A stretch of DNA of 36,789 nt from Gemmatimonadota bacterium (GTDB taxonomy: Bacteria > Gemmatimonadota > Gemmatimonadetes > Gemmatimonadales > GWC2-71-9): the NCBI GenBank assembly GCA_041491545.1, contig JBGPVE010000002.1, forward strand, positions 1-36,789. The letters are read 5' to 3'. The notes under the pieces were generated by a model. That model saw only the letters and a program-made list of their open reading frames with translations. It ran no database searches and was not told the origin of the DNA. Both the position numbers and the translations under genes were made by a program. Below, one piece after another: positions 8,809 through 28,012 of the stretch (positions are counted from its first letter, which is position 1; each line of letters starts with the position of its first letter).

Positions 8809-9784
8809 GCTATCCCTCAGTCGGGAGCGGCTCGACCGCCTGCGCCATGGCGCGGTCGTCGCCCTGGGCGAGCCCGGCGTCTTTTTCATCGAGGGACCGG
8901 GAGCGCTCACCTGCTTGCAGGGACTGCTCACCAACGATCTCGCGAAGCCGGGCGACCAGAGCCTGGTCTACGGCGCCCTGCTCACACCCAAGGGATCGAT
9001 CGTCGTCGACCTCTGGGTGCTTCGGGAGCCCGCCCGGTTCACCCTGATCGCTCCGCGTCGCGCGCACGAGGCCGCGCTCGAGTTGTTGACTCGTCAACTC
9101 CCGCCACGCTTGGCCAAGCTCACCGATGCGACCGGCGATGTCACCGTCGCATGGCTCGCGGGGGGTCAGGCCTTCCCGACGCTCGCGCGCTCCGGCACCA
9201 AGCCGCTGCCGGAGGCCGCGGGCCGGATCGCAACCGTCGCTTTAGGCGGCAGCCACCTGACGCTCGGACTCACCCACGAAGCGGCGCCGTTCGCGGCCAT
9301 AGCCGTCGGGCCGCGCCCGGCGATCGATGCGCTCTCGACGGCGCTGCTCCAAGCCGGCGCGGTCGAGGGCACGGACGAGGATCTCGAGGCGGCCCGCATT
9401 CTGGCCGGTTGGCCCGGCCTCGGAGCGGAGATCGAAGAGCGCACGCTGCCGCAGGAGGTGCGCTACGACGAGATCGGTGGCGTCTCCTACACCAAGGGTT
9501 GCTATGTGGGACAGGAAACGGTGGCCCGACTGCACTTTCGAGGTCACACCAACCGCGAGCTGCGCGGCCTCGTGTGGGAGAGCGCCGAGCCGCTGACTGA
9601 CACGGCGATCGTCGCCGGCGGGAAGTCGGTCGGTACCGTGCGCTCGACGCTGGTATTGGAGGACCGTATCATCGGTCTCGCGCCGATCCGCCGCGAGGTG
9701 GAGCCGGGCGCCGAGGTGACGGCGGGAGGCCGGGCGGCGACGGTGGTGGCCCTGCCGTTCGCCTCGGAAGACCTCGACGGCTAG
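8795..9784 (+). CDS. ygfZ: YgfZ/CAF17-type folate-binding protein (GcvT-like fold)
   Basis: Internal ATG (MPVLELSL...) of ORF 8732..9784, 329 aa. Contains the family signature KGCYVGQETVARLHFRG and CLQGLLTNDL. 14-nt overlap with the HAD gene. Confidence 0.82.
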   Translation: MPVLELSLSRERLDRLRHGAVVALGEPGVFFIEGPGALTCLQGLLTNDLAKPGDQSLVYGALLTPKGSIVVDLWVLREPARFTLIAPRRAHEAALELLTRQLPPRLAKLTDATGDVTVAWLAGGQAFPTLARSGTKPLPEAAGRIATVALGGSHLTLGLTHEAAPFAAIAVGPRPAIDALSTALLQAGAVEGTDEDLEAARILAGWPGLGAEIEERTLPQEVRYDEIGGVSYTKGCYVGQETVARLHFRGHTNRELRGLVWESAEPLTDTAIVAGGKSVGTVRSTLVLEDRIIGLAPIRREVEPGAEVTAGGRAATVVALPFASEDLDG

Positions 9785-10020: not shown

Positions 10021-10181
10021 GTGTCGCTCCTGAAAATATTTTGGGTTACTCAGGGTGATGCACGGACATATGCCGCCACTGTCGCAGTGGCATACGGCGA
10101 GCGAAGTTAACCGCCATTCCGCGTTTGTCAAGCTTTGGTCCTCCATTGTGATACACCTTTGTACGATGAGCGAATCCCATC

Positions 10182-13485: not shown

Positions 13486-13675
13486 TGAGCGCAGGTGAGC
13501 CGCGGGGCGAAGAGAGGGAGGCACGGAACAACAGTAAAGGGGGAGGCGAGAGCGGTGAAGGGCGCAGGGGGCCGCGTTGAACCTGGGGTGTTCCGGGGGT
13601 ACTATACGAAAGGGCAATCAGCCGGCCGTGGCGGGCCACCTGCCCGCTTCACCTCTCACGCTGCGCCGCCGTCTC

Positions 13676-14965
13676 ATGCGCTTTACAACTTATTCGAAGT
13701 TCATCCCCGAGCTCGCGGACGCCGTCAACTTGCAGGCGCTCCTCGATCAGCTCAGTGATTTTCTCCTTCAATCGGGGTTCGCTGGCCAGGGGCAGTCGTT
13801 CTGGCAAGACGAGATGGGCGACGGAGACCGCACGCTGGACGCCCTCAAGCAGGCGATTCTCAAGGCGCTGATGGAATCCGGTCAGCTTACGCCGGACATG
13901 CTCAAGGTGCTCCGGGGGGAGAGCACGGGCGACCCGGCTCGGGATCGGGAGATCGAGGCGACCCTCGGCGAATTGCTCGACCAGATCGTCCAGCGGCTCA
14001 TGGATGCGGGATACCTCACCGCCGGCGAGGCCCCGCAAGTGCCCAGCGGCTATCAGTCGATGTTCGGGCCCGGCGGCCAAGCCCACTCGGCGGCGCAGCA
14101 GGTACAGTTCAACCTGACCGAGAAGGGGATCGACTTTCTCGGCTACAAGACGCTCAAGAATCTGCTCGGCAGCGTGGGAAAATCGAGCTTCGGCGCGCAC
14201 GAAACGCCACACCTCGCCACCGGCGTCGAAGCCGAGGGTGTGAGCAAGCCCTACGAGTTTGGCGACGTGCTCAACCTCGACGTGCCGGCCACGCTCACCA
14301 GCGCCATCGCGCGCGAAGGATTGGGCGTCCCGCTCAACCTCGAGTACGAGGACCTGATGGTGAGCCAGTCGGAGTACCGATCCTCCGCGGCCTCGGTGCT
14401 CATGCTCGACTGCTCACACTCGATGATCCTCTATGGCGAGGATCGGTTCACTCCGGCCAAGAAGGTGGCGCTCGCACTCACCCACCTGATCCGCACCCAG
14501 TTTCCGGGCGACAGCCTTCGGGTCGTGCTCTTCCACGATTCGGCGGAGGAGATCCCGTTGCGCGCGCTGGCCACCGCGCAGGTGGGACCGTATCACACCA
14601 ACACGGCGGAGGGACTCAAGCTGGCTCGCCGGATCCTCACGAGCCAGAAGAAGGACATGAAGCAGATCATCATGATCACGGACGGCAAGCCTTCCGCGCT
14701 CACGATGCCCGACGGCCGGATCTATGTGAACTCGATGGGGCTCGATCCCCAGATCCTGGCGGCCACCTATCGCGAAGTGGCTAATTGCCGGCGCAACGGG
14801 ATCATGATCAACACCTTCATGCTCGCCCGAGACCGGAGTCTCGTGGAGTTCGTCAAGCAGGTGGCCTCGATCTGCAAAGGCAAAGCCTATTTCACGAACA
14901 CCATGACGCTCGGCCAGTTCATCCTCATGGACTTCATGAAGCGCAAGACCCGGAGGGTGAGTTAG
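13676..14965 (+). CDS. vWA domain protein, CoxE-like
   Basis: Internal ATG ([20 protein letters not shown]...) of ORF 13577..14965. Intact MIDAS motif LMLDCSHSM and downstream ITDGKPSA. Usual partner of the ChlI-like ATPase at 10182. Confidence 0.85.
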
Positions 14966-14970: not shown

Positions 14971-15007
14971 TGTCGCATTTGGGCCCCATGATGTCGCAAA
15001 CGGGCCC
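14971..15007 (+). repeat. Imperfect 16-nt direct repeat in the vWA-CHAT intergenic region
   Basis: TGTCGCATTTGGGCCC (14971-14986) and TGTCGCAAACGGGCCC (14992-15007), 13/16 identical, 21-nt period. The two GGGCCC blocks could also pair as a weak 6-bp hairpin followed by TTT. Confidence 0.4.
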
Positions 15008-15137: not shown

Positions 15138-18100
15138 GTGTCGTCCGCCGGATCGTGCGACCGAGCCCTCCAGATCGTCTTTCTCTGCTGCACAACGGCT
15201 TTGTTGGCCAGTGGCTGCACCAATCGCTTCGCGCCAGCCCGGTACGGTCGCGCCGATCTTCTAGCCGAGCTCGGGCGGCTCGCTCCCATGCGAGCGATCG
15301 AACCCCGCCTGTCGCTTCCCGCCCCCTATCAGCCCGTACCCTCGGCCCCCCAGCCACCCTCCGACGCCGTCCTCGAGTTGGCGGAGCGGGCCGCGGCGCG
15401 GGTTCGCCACCACGCGGATGCGCGGACTCTTCACGCGGCGGCTCTGGTCGACCTCCTCTGGGCGGGGACGGACGGAATTCCACTCGACCGGTCCATCTCA
15501 TACCTGCGAACGGTCTCGAGGCTCGAAGATCGGTCCGCGGCGGCGCTCACGGATCTGGCGGCGGCGCTCATCGTTCGGGCGGAGCGCAAGCGGTCGCCCC
15601 GCGATCTCCTCGAGGCGATCGAGAGCGCGGATCGTGCGCTCGAGCTGGAGCCGCGGGATGCCGCGGCCCGGTTCGACCTGGCGCTCGCGCTGGAGCGGTT
15701 TGGAATCGATGCGGAGGCGGAGCGAGCCTGGAAGATGTTTCTCGAGATCGACTCGACGTCGGGCTGGGCCACCGAAGCCAAGCGCCATCGCCGCCCGCCG
15801 GCCGAAGCGGCGGAGCCACCTCCAATGCCGGCGCCCACGGCCTCGCTGACGGGGGTCCTAGCCTACGCCGACGCGGCGCCCGAGCAGGCGATGCTCTTCG
15901 GGTGGGACCATCTGCTCGACGAGTGGGGTTCCGCGGTGGCGGCGGGAGACATGGCGCGTGCGGATCGTTCCCGGCGGCTTGCCGCCGCGGTCGGCGCCGA
16001 GTTGGAACGACAGCACCACGATGCGACACTGGCGGATGCGGTGCGGGCGGCCGTCCTGACCGCTGGGCACGCCTCGACCGAGCGGGCGCTCGCGAGAGCA
16101 CATCGAGACTACGCCGCCGGCCGCGCGGCCCATCGCGGCGGAACCTACGCGGCGGCGGGCCGCTGGTTCGACCGCGTGATCGCCAACCCAAGCGCGTCGC
16201 CGCCGCTGGTTGCATGGGCGCGATTCGGCCGCGCGTCGACGCTGGTGTACCAGGGGCGCCCCGACGCCGCCGACGCCGCCCTTCGGCAAGTGCTGGCGTA
16301 CGCGAATGCGCTCCGGGATCCGTCCTTGGCTGCCCGAGCTCACTGGGTGCTCGCCACCACGCTGCTGCGTCGGGGCCGGCACCAACAGGCGATCGATGAG
16401 TCGGAGCGAGGCGCCGAGCTGTTCCAACGTATCGGCGAGGAAGAAAATCTGGGAGCCGTCGAGGTGATTGCGGCCGACGCGGAGCAGTACCTGGCCGACC
16501 CGGCCGTGGAGTATGCGGCCGTCGAGCGCGCGCTGATCACGCTGCGGCCGTACCGCCGCTCGGTCTGGTTGCACGTCGCGCTGTACAACGCCGGCAGCTT
16601 TGCCGCGACGGACGGCTTGAGGCGGGCCGCCGTGAAGCTCGCGGACGAGGACGTTCGGGTCGCAACGGAGACGGGGGAGCGAATGTTCGTGGCGGAGGCG
16701 CGACTGGGGCGAGCTCGACTGCTCGCGGCAAGCGAGAGGGCATCGGTCGCGGCCCAAGACGTGGGTACCGCGCGCGCGATCGTACAGGCACTGCCGCCGA
16801 GCCCCGGACGAAACTGGTTCGACGCCGATCTCCGCCTGGCGGAGGCCGCGACGATCCTCTCGGACACACCGGTCAAGGCGCGTGCGGCCCTGGATTCCGT
16901 CATCGCGTTCTTCCGCTCGCAGCACAATCAGATCCGACTGTTGCCGGCGCTGGTGGCGCGCTCGCGCGCGGCGCTCGATCTGGGCGACGGGGCCGGCGCC
17001 ACCGCCGATCTCGACCGTTCGCTCACGATCTTGAACGAGCAGAGCTCCAGCATGACCCGCATCGAGCTGCGCGCTTCGCTATTGGAGACGGCGAGGAGCG
17101 TGGTCGATCGGTTGGTCATGCGGCGGGTCGCGGCCGGTCAGTCTCGTTTGGCGCTCGCCGACCTCGAGCGGGCGCGCGTGTCGCTGGCACCGACGGGCGC
17201 CAGGAATCGCGCACGAGTGGCGCCGCTGTCCTCCCCGCCGCGCCAGGTCGCCGCCGAGTATGCCCTGGTGGGTGACACGCTGCTCATCTGGACCATCGTC
17301 GATGCGGCCGTGGAGCTTTCCCGCACGACGGTCGACCGCGCGCAGCTCCTTCACACGATCGAGCAAACGCGCACCTCGCTCGAGCTGCGCTCCGAGGAGC
17401 GCTCGACGACTGGGCAGCTCACATCGCTGTACGACTGGCTCGTACGCCCGATCGAGCCGCGGCTCGGGCAATCCGGCGCCACGCTCGTGCTCGTTGCCGC
17501 CGGCGACCTTGCCGGCGTCCCGTTCGCGGCACTCCGCGACTCGGCGCGCGGGCGCTATCTGATCGAGGATCACCCACTCCGTTTCGTCCCAAGTCTCCGA
17601 GATGCAGGGCGCGCGGCGGCCAAGAGGCCGTCGCTGGCGGAGCGAGCGCTGCTAGTCGCCGATCCCGAGTTCGATCGGCGGGCGTTTCCCGAGCTGAGGC
17701 GGCTTCCGGGGGCGAGCGCCGAAGTCGAAGCGCTGCGCGCCGAGTATCCGGATGCCGTCGTGCTCTCCGGCCCCGCCGCGAATCGGGTGGCCGTCGAGGC
17801 GGCGCTCCAGCACGCGAGCGTTGTGCATTACGCCGGGCACGCCGTCTTCGACGACGAGCGCCCGGAGCAGTCTCTCCTCGTCCTCGCATCCGCCCAGGGC
17901 CAAAGCGATCCGGCGGCCGGGCGCATCACCGCGGAAGAGATCGAGCGGCTTCGCCTCGGCCACTTGCGGCTCGTCGTGCTTTCCGCCTGCGAGACGATTC
18001 GGTCGCGAAGCGCGGGATCCGGTGGCTTTGGCGGGTTGGCCGACGCGCTGTTGGCCGCTGGCGCGCAGGGCGTGGTCGGCAGCTTGTGGCGGGTCGACGA

Positions 18101-18263
18101 CGAGCTGACGCGCGAACTCATGAGCGAACTGCACCGGGCCTACGGCCGATCCGGCAACGGTGCCGAGGCGCTGCGCGCGGCGCAGCTTCGGCTGCTGCGA
18201 TCCGCCGACTCCAAGTTGAGCTCACCCGCCGCATGGGCGGCGTTCCGTTACGCGGGCAACTGA
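15138..18263 (+). CDS. TPR-like repeat + CHAT domain (caspase-fold) peptidase with lipoprotein-type signal peptide
   Basis: 1041 aa, GTG start. N-terminus MSSAGSCDRALQIVFLCCTTALLASGCTN (hydrophobic core plus Cys). Long helical-repeat middle, e.g. AIESADRALELEPRDAAARFDLALALERFG. C-terminal CHAT: LPGASAEVEAL, VVHYAGHAVF (His), RLVVLSACET (Cys), GAQGVVGSLWRVDD. Confidence 0.88.
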   Translation: MSSAGSCDRALQIVFLCCTTALLASGCTNRFAPARYGRADLLAELGRLAPMRAIEPRLSLPAPYQPVPSAPQPPSDAVLELAERAAARVRHHADARTLHAAALVDLLWAGTDGIPLDRSISYLRTVSRLEDRSAAALTDLAAALIVRAERKRSPRDLLEAIESADRALELEPRDAAARFDLALALERFGIDAEAERAWKMFLEIDSTSGWATEAKRHRRPPAEAAEPPPMPAPTASLTGVLAYADAAPEQAMLFGWDHLLDEWGSAVAAGDMARADRSRRLAAAVGAELERQHHDATLADAVRAAVLTAGHASTERALARAHRDYAAGRAAHRGGTYAAAGRWFDRVIANPSASPPLVAWARFGRASTLVYQGRPDAADAALRQVLAYANALRDPSLAARAHWVLATTLLRRGRHQQAIDESERGAELFQRIGEEENLGAVEVIAADAEQYLADPAVEYAAVERALITLRPYRRSVWLHVALYNAGSFAATDGLRRAAVKLADEDVRVATETGERMFVAEARLGRARLLAASERASVAAQDVGTARAIVQALPPSPGRNWFDADLRLAEAATILSDTPVKARAALDSVIAFFRSQHNQIRLLPALVARSRAALDLGDGAGATADLDRSLTILNEQSSSMTRIELRASLLETARSVVDRLVMRRVAAGQSRLALADLERARVSLAPTGARNRARVAPLSSPPRQVAAEYALVGDTLLIWTIVDAAVELSRTTVDRAQLLHTIEQTRTSLELRSEERSTTGQLTSLYDWLVRPIEPRLGQSGATLVLVAAGDLAGVPFAALRDSARGRYLIEDHPLRFVPSLRDAGRAAAKRPSLAERALLVADPEFDRRAFPELRRLPGASAEVEALRAEYPDAVVLSGPAANRVAVEAALQHASVVHYAGHAVFDDERPEQSLLVLASAQGQSDPAAGRITAEEIERLRLGHLRLVVLSACETIRSRSAGSGGFGGLADALLAAGAQGVVGSLWRVDDELTRELMSELHRAYGRSGNGAEALRAAQLRLLRSADSKLSSPAAWAAFRYAGN

Positions 18264-18287
18264 CCAACAGAGAAGGAGGGTGGAGCG

Positions 18288-19091
18288 ATGGCGTTCAATC
18301 TCGAAATCACGATTACGGGGCTCTGCATGTTCGTGCCGAGGTCAGAGTCGAGGATGGACGTCCTGATGGTCGCTGCCGGCGGGGGGATGGGAGGTTGCAG
18401 GTGCGGATGCATGCAGCGGCACTACGCCCGGGTATTCTACGATGCCGCATACAACAGCGATGATCCAAACGCTCTGCCGGGCGAATGTGTCGGCATCGCG
18501 CTCGAGGACAGACTGCTCGACTTGACCCAGCTCGGCGGCAATGGCGAAACGGTCAAGCCGCTTCGCAATCTCGTGGATGTCGGTGCCATCGTTGGGAAGT
18601 CGGTCTCGTCCGACCTGAACGCGATCCCCAGCCTGGCTGCGTGCGTGGCGCTCCCGCCCGGCTTTGTCGCATACAGCCTGCCGTACGGGCCGTGGGAGCT
18701 ATACGCACCGGGGGCCGGCGTAAACACGCTGCTACTGCCCTACTACGTGGTTTGGACGATAGAGGGGATTGACGACACCGAACTCCGCTGGGAACTCCGC
18801 GGGCTGGGTGGGCTTCCCGATCAGCCGCTTGCGCCGCTCTACCCAAAGCGAGGCCAGGCCGGCAACGCGATCAAACTGACCGCTTGCAACGTCACCAAGA
18901 GCCACGCCAACTGTAACGTAGTTGGCGATCCCGGATCACCGCCGCCGCCGAACTACCCGATGGACCATTTCGAGGCCTTCTATGACCTCTATGACTGGGA
19001 CGGGTTTCGGCCGGTGCCCATATATGCGCCGAAGCAATCGGGTGCGAGCAAGAGCACAGCCTACACCTGCGTGCCGTCGGGCGGTCACTAG
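18288..19091 (+). CDS. Hypothetical protein (267 aa), no family recognised
   Basis: Starts 24 nt after the CHAT stop, behind GAAGGAGGG. High third-position G+C. Predicted mostly beta (alternating hydrophobic segments). Cys/Gly cluster GGGMGGCRCGCMQRH near the N-terminus. No signal peptide or TM segment seen. Confidence 0.7.
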   Translation: MAFNLEITITGLCMFVPRSESRMDVLMVAAGGGMGGCRCGCMQRHYARVFYDAAYNSDDPNALPGECVGIALEDRLLDLTQLGGNGETVKPLRNLVDVGAIVGKSVSSDLNAIPSLAACVALPPGFVAYSLPYGPWELYAPGAGVNTLLLPYYVVWTIEGIDDTELRWELRGLGGLPDQPLAPLYPKRGQAGNAIKLTACNVTKSHANCNVVGDPGSPPPPNYPMDHFEAFYDLYDWDGFRPVPIYAPKQSGASKSTAYTCVPSGGH

Positions 19092-19106
19092 CAAACCCGC
19101 GCGCCG

Positions 19107-19985
19107 CTAGCTGCCGAGCGCCTTGACCAGCGCAGTCAACGCGTTTTCCAGCCCGTCCCAATCCGGCGGGCCACCGGCAGGCAAGAGCGACTCGAGACGC
19201 TGAAGCTCGGCGGCAGCGGATCCAGGCAACGTGGGCAGGCGCACGGCCTGCTCCACGGCCAATCTGCTGTCGCGCGCGCGGAAGAATTCCAGATCGTGTC
19301 GGGCGGCCGCGATGCGAGCGGACTCCGCCCAGGCGGCGAATCCGACGAGCGCCGGCGCGGGCGAGGCGGCGCCAGCCCTCCAGGCGTATGCCAGCAGCGG
19401 CTCCACTGCCCGCGGCGGAACGTCAGGACGGACCTCGCCGCGGAGCTGGCCGGCAAGGGGCGTGAGCCCGAATCTCTCCACGAGCGACGCGACGTCCGCG
19501 GCGATACCGCCAGCCGCGCTGTCGCCCGCGGCGATGGCGAGATCCAAATCCACCAGCCGGGCGCCCAAGCGAGCGGACGCCGCGGGATCGGAGAGCGGCT
19601 CGGCTCCGCCCCGAACGCTGCTCCACGGGCGACCTTCCCACCCCGCCGGCAGACCGTCGGCCCGAGCCGCGAGAAGCGCCACGAACCGGCGCGGATCGGC
19701 CGAAGCCGGCGCCGGCGGCCGCGCTAGTCTCCAGAGCAATGGGGCGAGCGCAATACCCGCGAGTGTCGCGGCGATCGCGAGCCATTGCTTGGCCGGCCAA
19801 CGCCGTGGCGCCGCCGAGCCACCTTCTAGCTCACCGAGCGCGGCAACCGCGTCGAAGTAGGCCTCCGATGCCTCTTCCTCTTCCGACGAGGCGAGCCGCG
19901 CCAGCAGCTCCGCCCGCTCGTGCTGATCGAGCTTTCCATCGAGCAGCGCGGCGAGCCGTTCCGCGTCCAGCGCGGGTTCAGTCAT
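19107..19985 (-). CDS. Putative anti-sigma factor (single-pass membrane protein)
   Basis: 292 aa, immediately downstream of the ECF sigma gene. N-terminus LDAERLAALLDGKLDQHERAELLARL resembles anti-sigma N-domains but lacks the HxxxCxxC zinc motif. One TM segment (WLAIAATLAGIALAPLLW), then an Ala-rich helical extracytoplasmic domain of about 200 aa. Confidence 0.6.
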   Translation of the reverse strand: MTEPALDAERLAALLDGKLDQHERAELLARLASSEEEEASEAYFDAVAALGELEGGSAAPRRWPAKQWLAIAATLAGIALAPLLWRLARPPAPASADPRRFVALLAARADGLPAGWEGRPWSSVRGGAEPLSDPAASARLGARLVDLDLAIAAGDSAAGGIAADVASLVERFGLTPLAGQLRGEVRPDVPPRAVEPLLAYAWRAGAASPAPALVGFAAWAESARIAAARHDLEFFRARDSRLAVEQAVRLPTLPGSAAAELQRLESLLPAGGPPDWDGLENALTALVKALGS

Positions 19986-20003
19986 GGTCGTGGCCCTCGA
20001 CTG

Positions 20004-20022
20004 CCGTCAAGTCATTTGACGG
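20004..20022 (-). other. Intercistronic hairpin between the sigma and anti-sigma genes
   Basis: CCGTCAA-GTCAT-TTGACGG, a 7-bp stem with a 5-nt loop, within the 69-nt gap between the sigma stop (20055) and the anti-sigma start (19985). Confidence 0.4.
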
Positions 20023-20054
20023 ACAGCGATCCCAAGATTCCCTAGACCCGCCCG

Positions 20055-20825
20055 TCATGGTGTCCATTCGCTGAGCAACTCCCGCGCGTCCTCGCGCGAC
20101 ACGCCGGAGTCCGCAAGATAGCCGCGCACCTCCGCCAGAGCGCGATCCATTCGCCGATACAGGGGCTTTTGCGGAACGCCCAGCCCGCGCGCGATGTCGG
20201 CCACACTCATGCCTTCCCAAAAGCGCATCCGCAACATGAGCTGGTCCTCCGGCGCCAGGCGTTGAAGCACGCCGCCGATCGCCTTCTTCTCCGCTTCGGT
20301 CTCGTCGGCGATCACGAGGTCGTCCGCCCGATCCGTGGCCGGACTGTCGGACAGCGGCTCCGCTTCCACGCGGGTGGGCCGCACGGACAGGCGGGCCGGC
20401 AGCTCGGTCAGAAGCTTCCCGAGCTCGCGATCGGACAACTCCGCCTGCCCCGAGGTTCGGAGCAGCTCCCCAGCCTGTTCCAGCTTGAGTCGGTCGCGAT
20501 AGACCAGGGTTTCGAGCCGGACGGCGAGCGCTCCCCGGCGGCGCGCGGCGGCCGAGGGCCGCCATCGGCCCCAGCGCTGGGTGCGGTAATCCCGGTGCAG
20601 CATCGCGATGACGACGGTGAGGTACGTCGTGATGGAGCTCTCGCCCCGGAACTTCCGGAAGACCGCGTAGTCGTCCTCGATGAGCTTGAGCTTGGCCCAG
20701 GAGACGAAGTCGTCGGCGTCGTCGCGGGGGAGGCCGTGGCGGCGGGAGATGGCGGCAGTGACCCGTTCGATCCAGCCTACCTGGCTGAGGAACAGGGCCT
20801 CGAGCTCTCGGCGGTCCGAGATCAT
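20055..20825 (-). CDS. ECF-type sigma-70 family sigma factor with extended region-2/region-4 linker
   Basis: 256 aa. Region 2-like DDADDFVSWAKLKLIEDDYAVFRKFRGESSITTYLTVVIAMLHRDYRTQRWGRW. Region 4 HTH LAPEDQLMLRMRFWEGMSVADIARGLGVPQKPLYRRMDRALAEVR. About 85-90 residues (nt ~20292-20558) lie between them. Confidence 0.8.
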   Translation of the reverse strand: MISDRRELEALFLSQVGWIERVTAAISRRHGLPRDDADDFVSWAKLKLIEDDYAVFRKFRGESSITTYLTVVIAMLHRDYRTQRWGRWRPSAAARRRGALAVRLETLVYRDRLKLEQAGELLRTSGQAELSDRELGKLLTELPARLSVRPTRVEAEPLSDSPATDRADDLVIADETEAEKKAIGGVLQRLAPEDQLMLRMRFWEGMSVADIARGLGVPQKPLYRRMDRALAEVRGYLADSGVSREDARELLSEWTP

Positions 20826-20846
20826 CTAGGGGGCGAGATGAAGGAT

Positions 20847-20862
20847 CGCGTGCGAGCACGCG
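20847..20862. promoter_or_regulatory. Palindrome in the divergent sigma / caspase-operon control region
   Basis: CGCGTGC-GA-GCACGCG (7-bp arms), 22-37 nt upstream of the sigma factor ATG. Candidate operator or 5'-UTR hairpin. Confidence 0.35.
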
Positions 20863-20995
20863 TCACCCGTTGAGATGGATCAGAGTGTCGCAGCCAAGGT
20901 ACAGCCCGCCCGAGGGGTCGGCAACGCGGCGGGAAGGAGAAAATGAGGGCCTGCGTCCATCAATATGGAATAAGCACATCAACGTGGGAGGACAT

Positions 20996-21757
20996 ATGAG
21001 GAAGAGCGTCAAGCCAACCTTGGGAGCGTTCAATCAGGGCGACGTTCCGACCATTGCCTGCTTCAACCGTGCCACGACACCGCTCGGGGTCGACCTCGAC
21101 GCTCTCATCGCCGCCATGCAGGCCTACGTGGACCGGCATGTCGCGCCAGTTTGGGCCACCCCCGCCAAGCTCTTCAAGACCGACGACTTCGTTCCGGGAG
21201 CGTGGGCCGTCGTATTTCTCGACGACGCGGACCAATCGGGGGCGCTGGCGTACCACGACCTGACCCCCGAGGGCTTGCCGCTGTCCAAAGTCTTCGTCCG
21301 GACGACACTCCAAGACGGCGAGCCGGTCAGCCTATCCACCTCGCATGAGCTGGTGGAAATGCTGGTGGACCCGGCGATCAACCTCATGACCACGGGTCCC
21401 GATCCGCTGGCCGTCTATGCGTACGAAAGCGCGGATCCCGTCGAACAATTGGCGTTCGATGTGATCGGGATCGCCATGAGCGATTTCGTGCACCCGGCCT
21501 ATTTCGAGAGCTTCCATGCGCCGGGGTCGGTTCGCTTCGATCACATGGACCAGGTGAAGCAGCCCTTTGAGATCTTGAGCGGTGGGTATCAGATCGTCAT
21601 GAAGGATGGCAAATGGAGCCAGGAGTACGGCTCACCTGCCAAGAAGATGAGCTTCGCCCGGGAGGACCGGCGGGGGCATCGCAGTGAAGCACGTAGTGCC
21701 GCTCGGCTGTACCGGGCTGATCTCGAGGCCATCGCGAGCCTGGCGGGACACGCGTGA
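20996..21757 (+). CDS. Hypothetical protein (253 aa), no family recognised; His/Glu/Asp cluster
   Basis: Internal ATG (MRKSVKPTLGAF...) of ORF 20870..21757, preceded by GGGAGG. No signal peptide or TM segment. Contains ALAYHD and SHELVEMLVDP (nt 21344-21370). This is an HExxE-type string, not the canonical HExxH. Confidence 0.7.
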   Translation: MRKSVKPTLGAFNQGDVPTIACFNRATTPLGVDLDALIAAMQAYVDRHVAPVWATPAKLFKTDDFVPGAWAVVFLDDADQSGALAYHDLTPEGLPLSKVFVRTTLQDGEPVSLSTSHELVEMLVDPAINLMTTGPDPLAVYAYESADPVEQLAFDVIGIAMSDFVHPAYFESFHAPGSVRFDHMDQVKQPFEILSGGYQIVMKDGKWSQEYGSPAKKMSFAREDRRGHRSEARSAARLYRADLEAIASLAGHA

Positions 21758-21813
21758 CCCGTCTCGCAGCGCTTCTCGGTCGACCCGACACAGCTAGGTG
21801 AAGGGATTGCGCA

Positions 21814-22089
21814 ATGGCGCCTCCAGTCCAACCAAACGGCAACCGGATCCTGCCCCTCCTCGCGGGGTTCGTCGGCGGGTTCTCTCCTCCGCTGGTGCTC
21901 AACTATCTCCCCCTCGCGGTCGGGGCGGACGCCCGCCATCTGGGCATCCAGCCTGCGGCTCCGCAACGCAGTGCCACCGTCATCAACGTGAAGAGCTGCG
22001 ACAGAGCGCCGAGCGGGGAGAATTCCTACTTGGTGTTGACCATGACCTCAGCGGACGGCGCGCCGCCGGGAACCCAGTTCTACGGTTGA
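21814..22089 (+). CDS. Small hypothetical protein (91 aa), hydrophobic N-terminal segment
   Basis: G/C-ending codons dominate in this frame, whereas the overlapping 21798..22106 frame is Arg-rich shadow. ILPLLAGFVGGFSPPLVLNYLPLAV could be a TM or signal segment. Lies between two same-strand genes. Confidence 0.5.
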   Translation: MAPPVQPNGNRILPLLAGFVGGFSPPLVLNYLPLAVGADARHLGIQPAAPQRSATVINVKSCDRAPSGENSYLVLTMTSADGAPPGTQFYG

Positions 22090-22144
22090 ATTCGTTCCGC
22101 AGCTAGAGGTGCTGAAAACATACCGTTAGATCCGGAGGTGTACG

Positions 22145-22996
22145 ATGCAGCGCGCCCTATTAGTCGGCATCAACCAGTACCCCGACCCAGCCAATCGCTT
22201 GCACGGCTGCGTCAACGACGTTCAGGACATGGCGAAATTCCTGACCGCGTCGTGCGGCTTCGACTCGGCGGACATCAGGCTCCTGTGCGACAAGCGGGCC
22301 ACGCGGGAGGCGATCATGGCGCACGTGGGCTGGCTGCTCAACGGAGCCGCGGCCGCCGATCACCTGGTCTTCCACTACAGCGGCCACGGCGCGCAGATGG
22401 CCGATCGCAATCCTCAGGGCGCCGTCCACGCCGTGCACGACGCAATCTGCCCGTACGATTTCGACTGGACCGACCAGCACGCTGTGCGGGACGTCGACTT
22501 CGGGTTTGCATTCGACACTGTGCCGGAGGGAGTGCACTTCGTCTGGGTGGCCGACTCGTGCTTTTCGGGCGGCCTCGCGAAAGCGTTTGGCGAGCCCAAG
22601 ACCGACCGGTGCCCCAAGCGGATGCGGCCTCCGGCCGATCTGGAGTGGCGCCTACAGACCGCCCTGTCGAGCAAGCGGTACCGGCCGCGGGTCTCGACGA
22701 TGAAAGACGTCGCGGGTCTGCTGAGATTGGCGCTGATCGCCGGGTGCACGGCGCAAGAAGAATCGAGCGACGCGTTGATCGACGGGCGGTACAACGGCGC
22801 GCTGACCTACTTCCTGCTTCAGGAGCTGAGGGCCAAGGCGGGGCTCACCGAGCCGCTGTCGGCATGTGTCCAGCACGTGGCGAAGGCGGTGCACGAGGGT
22901 GGGTACGATCAGACGCCGGAGCTGCATGGATTGCCGGCGCTGTTCAGCGGAACCTTCGCGGCGTCGGCGCCAGCAGTGCGGCTGGCTGCCAGCTAG
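22145..22996 (+). CDS. Caspase family (peptidase C14) protein, stand-alone orthocaspase/metacaspase-like
   Basis: 283 aa, GGAGG 6 nt upstream. ALLVGINQYPDPANRLHGCVNDV, catalytic His in LVFHYSGHGAQ, catalytic Cys in VWVADSCFSGG, p10-like LIAGCTAQEESSDALIDGRYNGALTYFLLQEL. Confidence 0.88.
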   Translation: MQRALLVGINQYPDPANRLHGCVNDVQDMAKFLTASCGFDSADIRLLCDKRATREAIMAHVGWLLNGAAAADHLVFHYSGHGAQMADRNPQGAVHAVHDAICPYDFDWTDQHAVRDVDFGFAFDTVPEGVHFVWVADSCFSGGLAKAFGEPKTDRCPKRMRPPADLEWRLQTALSSKRYRPRVSTMKDVAGLLRLALIAGCTAQEESSDALIDGRYNGALTYFLLQELRAKAGLTEPLSACVQHVAKAVHEGGYDQTPELHGLPALFSGTFAASAPAVRLAAS

Positions 22997-23071
22997 GACG
23001 GCGAGCAGGCTCTCGCACCACCCGGGCGTGGCTCCGTAGCAACGAGGCAAATCGAGCGAGGAGAACGGACG

Positions 23072-26000
23072 ATGCCGGCCAAGAGGAGAAAGTCGCCCAT
23101 GCGGTACTCGAGAAAGGCGCTGCCGCCGCCAGACGATCCGCTGAAACGCCATGAGGAGCTGGCCATCGACCGGTTCAGCAACACCGGCGATCAACTCCGG
23201 GCCACCACCCGGACGGCCGCGGCTCGAGCGAGGCGAAGCGCGAAGGGCAGGGCCAAGGAGGAGGACGGCAGGGTCAAGCGACTTGCCGAGCTCCGCCTGG
23301 CCGCGCTGGTGCAACATCGAGCCAGAATGGCCGCCGAGGCGCAGCCGGCTCGTGCGAGACTCGCGCCGGCGGTGGCCCCGGTCGCGGGGGCGAGCAACTG
23401 GGTGCAGCTGGGGCCAAGCGCCGTCCCCAAGGGGCAGACCTATTCCTCGGCGCGCGTCCTCATCACCGGGCGCGTCACCGCCATCGTCGTCGATCCGGCC
23501 AATACCGCCACGATCTACACCGGCACTGCCCAAGGTGGCGTCTGGAAGACGACGGATGGGGGCCTGACCTGGGCCCCTAAGTCCGACAACGAAGTATCGC
23601 TGGCGGTCGGCGCCCTGGCGATGGACCCGAGCAATTCCCTCGCCCTGTACGCGGGCACCGGCGAGGGCAACTTCTCCGGCGACAGCTACTACGGTAACGG
23701 GGTGCTCAAGACGGTGGATGGCGGCAACTCGTGGACGACGCTGGCTCAGGCGACGTTCATGGGCACGCGCTTCAGCCGGCTCGCCGTGACGCCAGGCACT
23801 CCCACGCGGCTCTTCGCCGCGACCGGAAGCGGGCTCTACCGGAGTACCGACGGCGGCGCGAGCTGGACCAAAATGACCGGCGTGCCGGCTTCCTTCGCCA
23901 CGGACGTCGTCGTCGATCCCGCGACGCCCGCCACGGCCTACGCGGCGTTCTGGGGAAACGGGATCTACCGGTGCACCAACGCCGGCGCGGCGACGCCGAC
24001 CTGGACGCCGCTGGCCGGCGGCTTGCCTGTCTCCGGCTTCACCCGGGTCTCGCTCGGCCTCTCGCCGTCCTCGCCGCAGACCGTTTACGCGCTGATCGCG
24101 GGACCATCCTACGTCGTCGATCGTTTCACGCAGACGACGGACGGGGGGAATACCTGGACGGCGATCGCGTTGCCCGGCGGCAACATCGGGGGGCAAGGTT
24201 TCTACAACCTCAACGTCGCGGTCGACCCGACGACGCCGGACATCGTCTACTTGAGCGGAATCTCGCTCTGGAAAGCCACCCGCAATCCGATGACCGGCGT
24301 CTGGACGATCACCGACGTCGGCGGCCCCTTTCACCCCGACAATCACGCCCTCGCCTTCGACCCCGCGAATCACCTGGTGATCTACGCCGGCAGCGACGGC
24401 GGGATCTACCGGTCCACCGACGGCGGCGCGACCTGGTCGGACCGGATCAACCGGGCGCTGTGTATCACCCAGTTCGAGTTCATCGACCAGCACCCGACGA
24501 GCGATGCGGTGGTCTTCGGCGGCACCCAGGATAACGGTACCGAGCAATACCGCAATAGCCCGGTCTTCAATCACGCCGACGATGGGGACGGAGGCTTCTG
24601 CGCGGTCGACGCCACTCAGCCCCGCAACGTGGTCAGCACCTACTACTCCGCGAGCCCCAAGCGCTCCACCGCCGGGGGAAAGTTCGGAACCTGGCTCAGC
24701 GTTAGCAGCGGCATCCAGGGCTCCCCGCTGTTCTACCCGCCGCTCGCCCTCGACGCGACCAACCCGAGCAACATCGCCTTGGGCACCGATCGCATGAACC
24801 TCGACGGCGCGCAGGGCGCCGGCGGGTGGCCCACGCAGGTCGCCCTTCCGGGCGTCTTCGGCAACGTGTCGGCCATCCACTACGTGAACTCGAGCCTGAT
24901 CTACGCGGGGACGACGACCGGGCAGGTCTACCGGCTCACGCTGAGCGGCGCAACCTGGACCGCGACGGCCATCCACGCCGCGCCGCTGCCGGGCCAGTAC
25001 ATCTGGGATGTCGCTGCCCGTCCCGACGACGTCGACACCGTGATCGTGGTGATGTCCACCTTCGGTATCTCCCACGTGTGGCGGGGCACCGTACCGGCGG
25101 GAGGCGGGACCGCCGCCTGGAGCGATATCAGCGGGGCCGGCGGCGGCACGCTGCCGGACATTCCCGCCAATGCGCTGGTCATCGATCCGGCCGCGCCGAA
25201 CACCTACTACATCGCGACCGACATCGCGGTCTACCGGACGACCAACGGCGGGGCCACCTGGACGCAGTTCAGCGAGGGCCTGCCGAACTGCGCCGTGTTC
25301 GACCTGCGGCTGCACGGCCCGTCGCGGCTCCTCCGCGCGGCCACGCATGGACGCGGCATGTGGGAGCGCAGACTCGACGTGGCGTCCATGTCGGCCGTGG
25401 ATCTCTACCTTCGCGATCACCTGATGGACACCGGCCGGACCTCGCCCTCCCTCTCGGGAGTTCCGGCCGCCTTCGAGGACCCGCTGCACTACGTGGCGCT
25501 CGGCGACACGCTCTGGTGGTGGCAGTGCGCCGACATCAAGGTCGATGCCCTCGAGGGGTCGCCGCCGGCGTACCAGTTCCCGGTCTCGAGCGTCGACTAC
25601 GTCACCTTCGAGAGCGAGCTTCAGCACCGCAACGCGCAGCGCGGCCGGGTCAACCGGGTCTACGTCCAGCTCCACAATCGGGGCTTTGCCCCGGGCGCGA
25701 GCGTCACCGCCAAGTTGCTCTACGCCGACGCGTCCGCCGGGCTCCCGCCCCTGCCCGTGGACTTCTGGACCGCCTTCCCCGGCAATTCGACCGATGCGAC
25801 CCACTGGAAGCCCATCGGCACGGCCCAAGTCGTTCCGTCTCTGTCCGCCACCGAGCCGACGGTGGTGGAGTGGGAGTGGAGCACGCCCTCGGACGCGGCC
25901 GACCACTCCTGCCTGCTGGTCGTCGTCGACTGTCCGGCCGACCCGATTCCGGCGGCGAGCAAGGTGTTCGACCTGGGTGTGCTGGTACCGAACGAGAAGC

Positions 26001-26485
26001 GCGCGGGTCTCAAGAACCTGCACGTGGTCGATGCGCCGCCGGCGGCGATGTCCTGGACGGCGCTCGGATTGTTCAGCTCGTCGAGGCGGCGACAGTCGAT
26101 CCGGATTCTGCCCGGGCGCCTCGGCGGCTGGACCGTGGGGCTCATGCTTCCCAAGGCGGCGATACTCGGCGATGCGGGGCGGAGCCTGAAGCTCACCGGC
26201 TTCGCGGTGCGGAAGCCGACCCGTTCGATGATCAAGGCGCTGCGCGATCGGTTCGGCCGGGACGTCACCGCGTTCGACATCACCCGTCTGTACGTGCTGG
26301 AGAGCGGCGAGCGCGGGGGCCGGCTGGAGGAGCTGGAGATTCCGAAAGCCGGCGTGCGTGTTCTGCTTTCGTTCGCCGCGCCCGCCAGAGGCAAGGGTGA
26401 AGCCGCGTTCAACGTCGTGCAGGAGGATGGAGAGCGGATCGTGGGGGGGAACACTTTCGTGCTGCGCACGCGGCGGGCGCGCTAG
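23072..26485 (+). CDS. BNR/Asp-box repeat beta-propeller protein (sortilin/VPS10- or Ycf48-like repeats) with basic N-terminal extension and extra C-terminal domain
   Basis: 1137 aa, GAGGAG upstream. At least six clear Asp-boxes (TDGGLTW, VDGGNSW, TDGGASW, TDGGNTW, TDGGATW, TNGGATW) plus degenerate ones. No signal peptide. The first ~100 aa are Arg/Lys/Ala-rich. The C-terminal ~370 aa (DLYLRDHLMDTGR...WWWQCADIKV...) are non-propeller. Confidence 0.85.
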   Translation: MPAKRRKSPMRYSRKALPPPDDPLKRHEELAIDRFSNTGDQLRATTRTAAARARRSAKGRAKEEDGRVKRLAELRLAALVQHRARMAAEAQPARARLAPAVAPVAGASNWVQLGPSAVPKGQTYSSARVLITGRVTAIVVDPANTATIYTGTAQGGVWKTTDGGLTWAPKSDNEVSLAVGALAMDPSNSLALYAGTGEGNFSGDSYYGNGVLKTVDGGNSWTTLAQATFMGTRFSRLAVTPGTPTRLFAATGSGLYRSTDGGASWTKMTGVPASFATDVVVDPATPATAYAAFWGNGIYRCTNAGAATPTWTPLAGGLPVSGFTRVSLGLSPSSPQTVYALIAGPSYVVDRFTQTTDGGNTWTAIALPGGNIGGQGFYNLNVAVDPTTPDIVYLSGISLWKATRNPMTGVWTITDVGGPFHPDNHALAFDPANHLVIYAGSDGGIYRSTDGGATWSDRINRALCITQFEFIDQHPTSDAVVFGGTQDNGTEQYRNSPVFNHADDGDGGFCAVDATQPRNVVSTYYSASPKRSTAGGKFGTWLSVSSGIQGSPLFYPPLALDATNPSNIALGTDRMNLDGAQGAGGWPTQVALPGVFGNVSAIHYVNSSLIYAGTTTGQVYRLTLSGATWTATAIHAAPLPGQYIWDVAARPDDVDTVIVVMSTFGISHVWRGTVPAGGGTAAWSDISGAGGGTLPDIPANALVIDPAAPNTYYIATDIAVYRTTNGGATWTQFSEGLPNCAVFDLRLHGPSRLLRAATHGRGMWERRLDVASMSAVDLYLRDHLMDTGRTSPSLSGVPAAFEDPLHYVALGDTLWWWQCADIKVDALEGSPPAYQFPVSSVDYVTFESELQHRNAQRGRVNRVYVQLHNRGFAPGASVTAKLLYADASAGLPPLPVDFWTAFPGNSTDATHWKPIGTAQVVPSLSATEPTVVEWEWSTPSDAADHSCLLVVVDCPADPIPAASKVFDLGVLVPNEKRAGLKNLHVVDAPPAAMSWTALGLFSSSRRRQSIRILPGRLGGWTVGLMLPKAAILGDAGRSLKLTGFAVRKPTRSMIKALRDRFGRDVTAFDITRLYVLESGERGGRLEELEIPKAGVRVLLSFAAPARGKGEAAFNVVQEDGERIVGGNTFVLRTRRAR

Positions 26486-26546
26486 TGCCCGGATCTTGGG
26501 GATGCGGAGATATTCCCACGACCAACGTACTAGCGAGGAGTCGGCA

Positions 26547-27131
26547 ATGGAGAATTTCTTAGAGTTCTTGGGGGTGGCGGCCGTCGTCGTACTTCTACCC
26601 ATCGTGCCGGCGCTTCTGATCTACAAGTACGTTCCTCCGGGCAGGACCGTCGCGGCGGGACCCTTCAGGGGTCTGCAGATCAAATTGACAGGCTCGTTCG
26701 CGGGCTACTTCGTCGTCCTTCTCGTCCTTCTGAGCTTTGCTGGCGCCTACTGGAAGCTGGCTGCGGAATACGAGCCATGGACCGTGCGTGGCAAGCTATT
26801 CTATGCCAATGGAAGACCGGTCGACGACGAGCGAGCCGTACTGTTCCAGGTGCAGCCACCCACCGCCCATGTTGCTGTGGACGGCAATTTTACAATCGTC
26901 GTACCGGTCGACATAACGAAATCGGAAGCGTTACCCATCATTCGGGTCGACCAGCTTCCGTTGCGGGATGGCGGGCCGGTGGCAGTCTCGCACCTTGAGA
27001 GCGATCCCCTTACGACTGCCGCCCGCACGAGGAGGAGCCTGCTCAGAAAGACTATTTGGCTACTCGATTCGCTAGTACTCACTACGCACCCGTCTCCTTA
27101 CCCGGATACACGTCAGGATTCCACACGCTAG
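26547..27131 (+). CDS. Hypothetical membrane protein (two N-terminal TM helices + beta-rich domain)
   Basis: Internal ATG (MENFLEFLGVAAVVVLLPIVPALLIY...) of ORF 26358..27131 with GAGGAG 6 nt upstream. Second hydrophobic helix FAGYFVVLLVLLSFAGAYW. WTVRGKLFYANGRPV...DGNFTIVVPV resembles a CarboxypepD_reg-like sandwich. Visibly lower G+C than the flanks. Confidence 0.6.
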   Translation: MENFLEFLGVAAVVVLLPIVPALLIYKYVPPGRTVAAGPFRGLQIKLTGSFAGYFVVLLVLLSFAGAYWKLAAEYEPWTVRGKLFYANGRPVDDERAVLFQVQPPTAHVAVDGNFTIVVPVDITKSEALPIIRVDQLPLRDGGPVAVSHLESDPLTTAARTRRSLLRKTIWLLDSLVLTTHPSPYPDTRQDSTR

Positions 27132-27139
27132 GAGGCAAT

Positions 27140-27520
27140 GTGAGAGTGCTACGCGGCGCAACATGCCAGCTGCTGACGAAGAGAATAGGTCTGTGGTTCA
27201 TTGTATCAGCATTCGCGGCCGCTACGACCTCCGTGGATGCGCAGGTCAGTTTGCGGGGGCGCCTGGATCGGCGTGATGCGTCTGGGCAGTTGTATCCGGC
27301 GACGGGATTTGCTGTGACGCTTAGATCTCCAACCACAGGAGTACGTTCCCTCGCCGCGTACGCGGGAATCGATGGATTCTATTACTTCTCCGGAGTTGCT
27401 CCGGGTCAGTACCAGTTGGAGGTGTGGTTGCCGACGAGTCCGCCAAGCCCGATGCTGTTCAACATTCAGGTACCGATGGTCCCCCAGTTTGATATTTTCC
27501 CGATTCTCGTGCCCTTCTGA
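27140..27520 (+). CDS. Secreted carboxypeptidase-regulatory-like (CarboxypepD_reg) domain protein
   Basis: GTG at 27140 (or 27146) just after AGGAGG and 9 nt after the upstream stop. Signal peptide RIGLWFIVSAFAAATTSVDAQ. Then VSLRGRL...GFAVTLRS...IDGFYYFSGVAPGQYQLEVW, typical of this Ig-like fold. The 5' part of listed ORF 27056..27520 overlaps the upstream gene. Confidence 0.65.
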   Translation: MRVLRGATCQLLTKRIGLWFIVSAFAAATTSVDAQVSLRGRLDRRDASGQLYPATGFAVTLRSPTTGVRSLAAYAGIDGFYYFSGVAPGQYQLEVWLPTSPPSPMLFNIQVPMVPQFDIFPILVPF

Positions 27521-27536
27521 CGCGCCCAACTTCTGG

Positions 27537-27560
27537 CGGATTGCTGGCTGCCGCAATCCG
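27537..27560 (+). terminator. Hairpin after the last gene of the caspase operon
   Basis: CGGATTGC-TGGCTGCC-GCAATCCG, a perfect 8-bp stem, 17 nt after the stop at 27520. No U-tract. Confidence 0.4.
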
Positions 27561-27738
27561 TGGGAAAGCCGTGAGCCATGTCCATCCAATGACAATGTGG
27601 TCGCGGCAGGGGTGTCGTACTCCAATCGTCCCGAGTTCTTGGGGGACGTGGACCGGAAGGTGGGCGCGAACTTCGGCCTGCGATATAAGACCGTGAAGAA
27701 TTGATCCCACCAGCGGGCGCACCGGAAGCCGGGGAGTA

Positions 27739-28012
27739 ATGGCTTACGGCCGGGTCGCCATGCTCGTCATCCACGGCATGGGCGAGCAGTTCCCTACGAA
27801 ACCCTCGACACGATCACCCGCGGATTTGCGGAGACGTTCGCGACGCGCGCGGGCTGAGCGCACTCACCAGCGAGCGCCGGCAGCATGCGGACTGGACCGA
27901 GATCACCGTGCACATCGACTTCGGACCCCGATGACACCGCGCGGCCTGCAGCGACTCAGACTGTTCGAGTTCTACTGGGCCCGCAAATTGGGTGGAGACG
28001 GCCGCTGGCCGC
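27739..28012 (+). pseudogene. Probable frameshifted / truncated remnant of an alpha/beta-hydrolase-like gene
   Basis: ORF 27739..28110 opens with a credible MAYGRVAMLVIHGMGEQFP and then turns into Arg-rich shadow sequence. Protein-like text continues if the frame is switched three times: YETLDTITRGFAETFATRAG from 27795, LSALTSERRQHADWTEITVHIDFGP from 27854, then TPRGLQRLRLFEFYWA back in the first frame. The reading then runs into the 3' end of the minus-strand M48 gene. Hand translation only. Confidence 0.35.

Follow-up and report, generated by a model that had tools for sequence, protein, structure and literature searches.

The window analysed here is a stretch of 36,789 nucleotides from a Gemmatimonadota bacterium (contig JBGPVE010000002.1 of assembly GCA_041491545.1), and our subject is a 12.4-kb span within it (15138–27520) that encodes two caspase-fold proteases, an extracytoplasmic function (ECF)-type sigma factor, an anti-sigma-like protein and several proteins of no recognised family. 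An earlier note on this DNA had read the ten genes of the span as one module. We compared their surroundings with those of their relatives on other contigs (fetched for neighbourhood comparison and numbered L001–L047) and found that the span is a mosaic rather than a ten-gene module: only four of the genes, which we call the cassette, are linked in other genomes. The gene calls between 15138 and 26485 are matched by independent calls on a near-identical metagenome contig (L001), and codon-position statistics of the open reading frames (ORFs) of the window, whose G+C content as a whole is ~67%, gave a G+C content at third codon positions (GC3) of 0.77–0.89 for genuine genes.

The four-gene cassette

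The cassette (15138–20825) is laid out as two convergent operons, one consisting of the genes for a CHAT protease and a 267-residue protein and the other of those for the sigma factor and the anti-sigma-like protein. The first gene (15138–18263, + strand) encodes a TPR-CHAT protease of the caspase fold, 1041 residues long, with a Pfam CHAT match at E = 2.9e-63 in addition to TPR matches; the lipoprotein signal and catalytic dyad ascribed to it earlier were both borne out, as the lipobox LLASGC and the His and Cys motifs HYAGHA and LSACET. The CHAT orthologues, which are 40–60% identical to that of the window in all cassette loci, all have the lipobox and an intact His/Cys dyad, and the protein is predicted to be a periplasmic lipoprotein. 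Its TPR part matches designed TPR proteins in the PDB.

A tandem direct repeat, TGTCGCA-N14-TGTCGCA (14971–14998, + strand), precedes the start of the CHAT gene by some 140 nt, its two copies lying in a 21-bp register. The same repeat, equally spaced, precedes the CHAT gene in L006 (6665–6692), L009 (6605–6632) and L015 (9267–9294), and it is missing upstream of CHAT in L043 and L011, so that it is found in the nearest relatives only. From its position it is a candidate regulator-binding site, or an unusual promoter element, of the CHAT operon; no ECF-type −35/−10 pair was recognised upstream of CHAT. A single TGTCGCA in the intergenic region between the sigma gene and the divergent gene for a 253-residue protein is within chance expectation and, in relatives, overlaps a possible start codon.

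The second gene (18288–19091, + strand), 24 nt past the CHAT stop codon and led by a strong Shine–Dalgarno sequence, encodes a 267-residue protein of an unannotated family. The TGA stop codon of CHAT is in frame with this ORF (18261–18290); a read-through fusion of the two is unlikely, because the frame is not kept in L006 and because of the strong Shine–Dalgarno sequence before the ATG. A homologue of the 267-residue protein is placed between the CHAT and anti-sigma genes in every cassette locus, and a divergent one (28% identity) follows a CHAT gene on a separate short contig (L046), the CHAT protein there being 61% identical to that of the window. A first homologue search gave few close relatives for the window's protein; its family, clustered at 50%, comprises 414 representatives. 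Residues H45, W156, H227 and C261 are invariant in the family, and G11 and C13 nearly so. The family has no match in Pfam, NCBIfam, PADLOC, PHROGs or the PDB, even when family alignments were searched at permissive E-values, and an AlphaFold2 model from a six-sequence alignment failed (predicted local distance difference test score, pLDDT, of 29). Twin-arginine (Tat) signals were found in eight of the ~107 family representatives with a recognisable core, and the cassette orthologue in L043 bears one. One family member, P0334 (669 residues), has a Trypsin_2 peptidase domain at its N-terminus, joined to the family domain, and this predicted trypsin-like fusion is a second, independent link of the family to proteases.

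The sigma factor and the anti-sigma-like protein are encoded on the opposite strand. The 256-residue sigma factor (20055–20825, − strand) is ECF-like, in line with the earlier proposal, with a TIGR02937 match of 54.7 bits (cut-off 42.9) that covers residues 26–236. Its sequence is unusually divergent, having ~65 additional residues between regions 2 and 4; Pfam recognises region 4 alone, and no sigma factor in the PDB was matched at E ≤ 0.01. The anti-sigma-like gene (19107–19985, − strand) always lies directly downstream of the sigma gene, 69 nt away and on the same strand in the window. Hydropathy and orthologue alignment suggest that its 292-residue product is a single-pass membrane protein, with a cytoplasmic N-terminus of ~55 residues predicted to form three helices, a transmembrane segment at ~67–88 and a helix-rich outer domain of ~200 residues. 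This outer domain is conserved among the orthologues, which have in common the N-terminal motif ERLAALLDGRL...ER.ELL.RLASS. The single-pass topology noted earlier agrees with this. Similarity to the zf-HC2 family falls below threshold (E = 0.28, residues 9–28), and zinc ligands are missing: Cys is absent from the first 60 residues, in which the one His is not conserved.

Upstream of the sigma gene is a promoter-like element, TTGCCG-N17-TACCTT (20894–20925, − strand), inside GTTGCCG...CTGTACCTTGG. It is kept in L006, L007, L009, L010 and L015, in L011 it has become degenerate, and a motif scan found it to be the single good match across the window. The element resembles a housekeeping-type promoter more than the classical ECF promoter (GGAAC/CGT), which raises the question of sigma autoregulation. 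One ECF promoter common to the sigma gene and the genes divergent from it was considered and rejected, the sigma motif not being repeated before the latter.

The conservation of the cassette was followed with a sigma-alignment scan of one genome per species, which returned 12 loci. Seven of these have sigma orthologues 57–75% identical to that of the window and are labelled Gemmatimonadota (Gemmatimonadaceae, Gemmatimonadales and Longimicrobiaceae), one is more distant (an unclassified bacterium, sigma identity 42%) and four are from Ignavibacteriota/Chlorobiota. The four genes are co-linear in L006, L007/L008, L009, L011, L012, L015 and L043/L044, and, the window aside, the block is complete in all Gemmatimonadota loci that extend far enough (7/7), with flanking genes that all differ; two short contigs, L013 among them, were too short for the presence of CHAT to be judged. 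Across the orthologous loci in Gemmatimonadota, identities to the window's proteins are 57–76% for the sigma factor and 40–49% for the anti-sigma-like protein, and the homologues of the 267-residue protein are either 27–40% identical or detected by profile (E = 1.6e-6 to 1e-158). In an all-against-all clustering of seven loci, the four cassette families were the only ones common to at least five. The block contains insertions in some loci (an M28 peptidase in L011; a C39-type peptidase and two unknown proteins in L043), and the retention of the four genes despite rearrangement and insertion argues for functional coupling. The earlier suggestion that the CHAT protein, the anti-sigma and the sigma factor belong together is thus upheld by every sufficiently long Gemmatimonadota locus.

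In the four Ignavibacteriota/Chlorobiota loci, which were retrieved only through a heptapeptide of sigma region 4, a CHAT gene lies within ~4 kb, and the two that we read in detail (L017 and L020) have the order sigma factor, ZAS anti-sigma, TPR-CHAT. By gene order and domain content this arrangement appears analogous, not demonstrably orthologous, to the cassette.

The genes around the cassette vary. Divergent from the sigma gene elsewhere are a 76-residue protein together with a GH94 glucan synthase, an SH3_3 protein, or a Ser/Thr kinase. The conserved protein of ~76 residues (YKGFAI.ARTFQIRGSGRWTLDLLIGRH...) was found in the three closest cassette loci (L006 12753–12983, L007 5687–5914 and L009 ~281–547) and is absent from the window. 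Ser/Thr kinases, mostly TPR-tailed, occur at a distance of a few kb from the cassette in L006 (1971–4697), L043 (12055–14784), L009 (~8587–9459) and L013 (1582–2454), and there is none among the window ORFs that were scanned. Peptidases of the S8, M28 or C39 families lie near some cassette loci.

Right-hand genes and the remainder of the window

To the right of the cassette, on the + strand and divergent from the sigma gene, six genes led by Shine–Dalgarno sequences had been described. Four of them, encoding proteins of 253 and 91 residues, a caspase and a propeller, were confirmed as genes, with gaps of 55–102 nt and mostly GGAGG-like Shine–Dalgarno sequences (that of the 91-residue gene is weak), while the last two are doubtful ORFs. 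Because the gaps are short and no terminators are predicted within the string, it may well be co-transcribed in this organism. In every other genome sampled, the right-hand genes are unlinked to the cassette and to each other.

The 253-residue protein (20996–21757, + strand) contains the motif SHELVEMLVDP and has no match in Pfam, NCBIfam, PADLOC, PHROGs or the PDB. It has 2998 homologues, those listed being 69–77% identical, and the named sources include metagenome-assembled genomes of Terriglobales, Planctomycetota and Burkholderiales; such conservation across phyla is unusual for an unnamed protein. The motifs AYHD, SHELVEMLVDP, YESADPVE and EDRRGHRSE are invariant in the family, and relatives of 72–75% identity on long contigs stand alone among unrelated neighbours. 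An AlphaFold2 model (pLDDT 59.5) has an alpha/beta fold with a central helix bearing SHELVEM, and a Foldseek search of the PDB with this model of modest quality gave nothing significant (best E = 0.086) but many weak matches to metzincins; on the model, the protein may be a novel zincin-like enzyme. A gasdermin-like fold had been raised as a possibility for this or the 267-residue protein. None was found among the Foldseek matches of the 253-residue model, nor was there a Pfam gasdermin match, and we have no evidence for a gasdermin or other pore-former among the unknown proteins, by a test that is weak because one model has a pLDDT of 59.5 and the other, that of the 267-residue protein, failed.

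The 91-residue ORF (21814–22089, + strand) has a hydrophobic N-terminal segment and a real coding signal (GC3 0.80); it belongs to no family, and among the fetched loci tblastn matched it in the near-identical L001 alone. We considered it as a conserved small partner of the propeller and rejected this, the small ORFs upstream of propeller homologues carrying the basic motif of the propeller itself. The next gene (22145–22996, + strand) encodes the stand-alone C14 caspase, an orthocaspase-like protein of 283 residues, for which the earlier assignment agrees with the domain searches (Peptidase_C14, E = 2.4e-26; PF00656, 93.3 bits against a cut-off of 21.4); it has the dyad motifs HYSGHG and ADSCFSGG and no signal peptide. 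PADLOC matches it to its caspase model at 2.5e-20, and an assignment to the EACC1-associated subtype was rejected at 44.7 bits where 140 are required. Around the relatives of this caspase that are 49–55% identical to it, and around more distant ones, no gene of the window lies within 8 kb; DUF5723 or LRR proteins are the neighbours there.

A BNR/Asp-box propeller of the Sortilin-Vps10-like type follows (23072 or 23099–26485, + strand), recognised by Pfam and NCBIfam. Its lack of a signal peptide and its Lys/Arg-rich N-terminus, already noted earlier, were confirmed, and the latter is conserved together with a PPPD(D/N)PL(L/K)RHEE motif; the length of 1137 residues given for it probably needs to be corrected, since a start at 23099, the more probable one, gives 1128. 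Full-length homologues, 55–68% identical, come from Acidobacteria, Planctomycetes, Verrucomicrobia and Proteobacteria, and the closest (64–68%) stand in unrelated contexts with no other window genes nearby. In three of four homologue loci the basic stretch and the motif also occur in a small ORF of 80–98 residues immediately upstream. Small ORFs upstream of the propeller lie in L040 (7731–7973), L041 (7648–7944) and L042 (7720–7962), and in L047 there is one of 67 residues (205–408). The window has no such ORF before its propeller (N-terminal part 23072–23400), and the caspase gene stands there instead.

The two doubtful ORFs (26547–27520, + strand) lie in a stretch of lower G+C and have low GC3. 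That with two transmembrane segments has a GC3 of 0.45 past its overlap with the propeller gene (26486–27131), or 0.69 over its full extent (26358–27131). The other (27056–27520) has a GC3 of 0.61, and its match to CarboxypepD_reg, 19.5 bits, lies under the cut-off of 32.3, so that the secreted CarboxypepD_reg-like protein reported previously is doubtful. Neither ORF has a match in any fetched locus. The ORF with two transmembrane segments is, with the 267-, 253- and 91-residue proteins, the fourth product for which Pfam, NCBIfam, PADLOC and PHROGs gave no family, in agreement with the four unrecognisable proteins of the earlier note. The fall in G+C toward the right end was likewise confirmed, with a minimum of 0.60 at 27–28 kb of the window; over the ~1.5 kb from 26486 to 28012 the G+C content is 0.60–0.64, the host GC3 signal is missing, and the ORFs look foreign or decayed. 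An ORF of 123 residues (27739–28110, beginning ...VIHGMGEQ) overlaps the end of an M48 gene. Strain differences between the window and L001 were considered and set aside: they are concentrated at the end of the contig, and an assembly artefact is their most likely cause.

The remainder of the window is of a housekeeping nature (an rpoD-like sigma factor, glycolate-oxidase-type genes, HAD, GCV_T, M48 and S9 proteins, and others). A gene for an AAA-like ATPase (10170–11645, + strand; weak AAA_5 and Sigma54_activat matches) and one for a VWA_2 protein (13577–14965, + strand) shortly precede the CHAT gene, with genes for a cytidylate-kinase-like protein and an MFS transporter in between; the ATPase and VWA_2 genes were considered as cassette members and rejected, as they are not kept in the other loci. 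An Rfam scan of the window gave no matches, and scans for terminators and sigma-70 promoters were uninformative. Scans of the window with Pfam, NCBIfam, PADLOC and Rfam found no cas genes, Cas7-11, CRISPR array, Csx30, Csx31 or CBASS. PADLOC identified no complete defence system in the window, with isolated single-gene matches to caspase (2.5e-20) and BovA, the latter a weak match of the CHAT protein (1.4e-6 across 90 residues). The earlier statements that cas genes, an NTPase sensor and a recognisable pore-former are missing, and that no named system fits, are in accord with the Pfam, NCBIfam and PADLOC scans.

Relation to known systems and proposed mechanism

The closest known system is that of Myxococcus xanthus, in which DdvA is a transmembrane anti-sigma factor with a fused periplasmic TPR-CHAT region and DdvS is its ECF sigma factor (PMC11506125). 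The authors of that study propose that CHAT autoproteolysis is the site-1 cut that precedes RseP, a proposal that they had no means of testing, since protease and substrate are parts of a single chain and no signal is known (PMC11506125). Like DdvA/DdvS, the cassette has an ECF-type sigma factor with an adjacent single-pass anti-sigma, predicted to have a short three-helix cytoplasmic domain, and a large TPR-CHAT protein with an intact His/Cys dyad, here predicted to be on the periplasmic side. It differs in that, here as at every orthologous locus, the TPR-CHAT protein is not fused but comes from a separate, convergent lipoprotein gene, in that the N-terminus of the anti-sigma lacks the CHCC zinc ligands, in the presence of a fourth conserved gene (the 267-residue family), in the lack of an adjacent CBASS or CRISPR-Cas island, and in belonging to Gemmatimonadota rather than Myxococcota.

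A second precedent is provided by type III-E CRISPR loci, in which the TPR-CHAT protease Csx29 cleaves Csx30 and thereby relieves the ECF sigma factor CASP-sigma (PMC10028731). Common to this craspase and the cassette are a TPR-CHAT protease and an inhibitor, putative in the cassette, of an ECF sigma factor, with weak similarity between the CHAT domains. Craspase, however, acts in the cytoplasm and depends for its activation on an RNA-guided Cas7-11 complex, whereas the cassette has no cas genes, Csx30 or Csx31, and its protease and the sensor domain of its anti-sigma are predicted to face the periplasm. In the actinobacterial group ECF54, genes for CHAT, subtilase and carboxypeptidase proteins form a conserved context, and proteolytic control has been proposed (PMC8999054, PMC7826278). 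The cassette resembles ECF54, compared here by description only, in having a CHAT gene conserved beside an ECF sigma factor and, at some loci, S8, M28 or C39 peptidases nearby, but ECF54 is described as having no anti-sigma, whereas the cassette, which is from Gemmatimonadota, always has an anti-sigma-like gene.

In classical regulated intramembrane proteolysis (RseA/DegS/RseP; RsiW/PrsW/RasP), a dedicated site-1 protease removes the outer domain of a single-pass anti-sigma factor. The cassette anti-sigma would be similar in being single-pass with an extracytoplasmic domain, but its candidate site-1 protease, a clan-CD (caspase-fold) lipoprotein whose gene is part of the cassette, is not of the DegS or PrsW type. 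We found no description of a split sigma/anti-sigma/TPR-CHAT lipoprotein cassette, or of the 267-residue family, in the searchable literature, outside which the ECF Hub group descriptions lie.

We therefore read the span as a mosaic whose cassette would follow the logic of DdvA/DdvS with the parts split over two polypeptides, and we put the probability of this reading at about 0.6. The proposal of the earlier note that the exported CHAT protein cleaves the anti-sigma is a reasonable hypothesis, because two published systems couple a TPR-CHAT protein to an ECF sigma factor through an anti-sigma, and clipping of the outer domain of the anti-sigma by CHAT, so as to release the sigma factor, would by this analogy be the most likely function of the cassette. 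Gene linkage, predicted topology and intact catalytic residues are what was observed, and from these we infer cleavage and its direction. In the mechanism that we propose, the anti-sigma would use its short three-helix N-terminus to tether the sigma factor to the membrane, and the periplasmic TPR-CHAT lipoprotein would become active when its TPR scaffold senses a cue from the envelope or from outside the cell, and would possibly be gated by the 267-residue partner acting as an inhibitor, co-sensor, adaptor or co-substrate. The activated protease would then cut the extracytoplasmic domain of the anti-sigma, as the site-1 step, after which a site-2 protease of the RseP type and cytoplasmic proteases would free the sigma factor. 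A more specific form of this proposal, which we put forward tentatively, is that the cassette is a naturally split DdvA, in which the free periplasmic TPR-CHAT protein would be dedicated to its own anti-sigma as a trans-acting site-1 protease and would be gated by the 267-residue His/Cys protein, predicted to be Tat-exported in some lineages, as a securin-like inhibitor or ligand sensor.

The direction of control might also be the reverse, with a conventional envelope-stress switch of sigma and anti-sigma triggered by another protease and the CHAT/267-residue operon as its conserved target, which would provide a periplasmic effector when needed and would not be the sensor. Conserved neighbours are targets in many ECF groups, and Casas-Pastor et al. 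state that context cannot separate regulators from targets (PMC7826278). The CHAT and 267-residue genes, moreover, form a separate convergent unit with a TGTCGCA repeat of its own, unlike the promoter element of the sigma gene. Set against this, the repeat is confined to the closest relatives, there is no recognisable ECF-type −35/−10 pair before CHAT, and both published TPR-CHAT/ECF-sigma systems put the protease upstream of the sigma factor. The distinct elements upstream of CHAT and of sigma do not settle whether the protease is input or output; on balance, we consider it unlikely to be output. It is improbable that the four genes are not coupled at all, being adjacent by common descent in one phylum, with the CHAT protein one of many unrelated TPR-CHAT paralogues: all clearly orthologous cassettes are from Gemmatimonadota, and TPR-CHAT genes appear to be common in large soil-bacterial genomes (L038 and L042 are examples), but the block survives changes of flanks and insertions from Gemmatimonadaceae to Longimicrobiaceae, with CHAT identity down to 40%, and an analogous arrangement of sigma, anti-sigma and TPR-CHAT exists in Ignavibacteriota/Chlorobiota.

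The full relay originally proposed, in which CHAT cleaves the anti-sigma, the sigma factor induces the divergent string and the caspase processes the propeller or the unknown proteins, leading to defence, death or envelope remodelling, now appears highly improbable. It draws on the arrangement of the string, which is divergent from sigma, on one strand and tightly spaced, with mostly good Shine–Dalgarno sequences and no predicted terminators, and on a clustering of caspase-fold proteases elsewhere: a distant C14 caspase (656 residues) lies between two TPR-CHAT genes in L038 (4416–14088), and a propeller homologue adjoins a 1142-residue TPR-CHAT protein, a C11 peptidase and a sigma/kinase pair in L042 (8001–16753). 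A loose tendency of caspase-fold proteases to cluster with one another and with these propellers may exist, but the hints of it are anecdotal. The four right-hand genes are in no other cassette locus, the gene divergent from sigma varies each time, the relatives of the caspase, the propeller and the 253-residue protein (49–55%, 64–68% and 72–75% identical, respectively) are scattered with none of the other genes nearby, the string is not preceded by a further copy of the sigma promoter motif, and the searches turned up neither a pore-former nor an NTPase nor any known defence architecture. Nothing indicates that the caspase/propeller string is a sigma regulon or a set of caspase substrates, and we hold it to be very doubtful that the sigma factor has captured the string as an output in this organism. 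The gene list of the earlier note was, in sum, largely correct and its interpretation half right.

Besides the clustering in L038 and L042, several observations weigh against the split DdvA/DdvS reading that we prefer. No sequence homology of the CHAT protein to DdvA was found among PDB chains, where no chain labelled DdvA was matched, and the similarity of its CHAT domain to the craspase CHAT chains is weak (E ~0.1, around the catalytic region). The anti-sigma is identified from its position, its topology and a zf-HC2 match that falls short of the threshold. The 267-residue protein of the window, and most members of its family, have no signal peptide. In L013, a Ser/Thr kinase directly follows the anti-sigma gene, and the contig ends before the position of CHAT. 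The cassette sample is ~10 loci from one phylum, and the Ignavibacteriota/Chlorobiota arrangement was rejected as orthologous on an hhalign probability of 0.1 for the anti-sigmas. The direction of control, finally, is drawn from topology and precedent, and the sigma factor could instead be what drives the CHAT operon.

Implications of the cassette

These results remove a two-caspase death or defence relay, which is without comparative support, and leave in its place an extension of known logic. The link between TPR-CHAT proteins and ECF sigma factors, known from Myxococcota and CRISPR loci, now takes in Gemmatimonadota as well, Ignavibacteriota/Chlorobiota showing an analogous arrangement, and the 267-residue family, unannotated and with ~400 representatives, obtains its first functional context, as a partner of CHAT. 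If the cassette is indeed a split DdvA, it would be the first case of periplasmic anti-sigma proteolysis by a caspase-fold enzyme that is genetically separable into protease, substrate and regulator. With the TPR-CHAT protease, the anti-sigma and the candidate regulator encoded by separate genes, cleavage in trans, inhibition and sensing could be tested with purified parts, and the cassette may thus make the question of mechanism tractable in trans.

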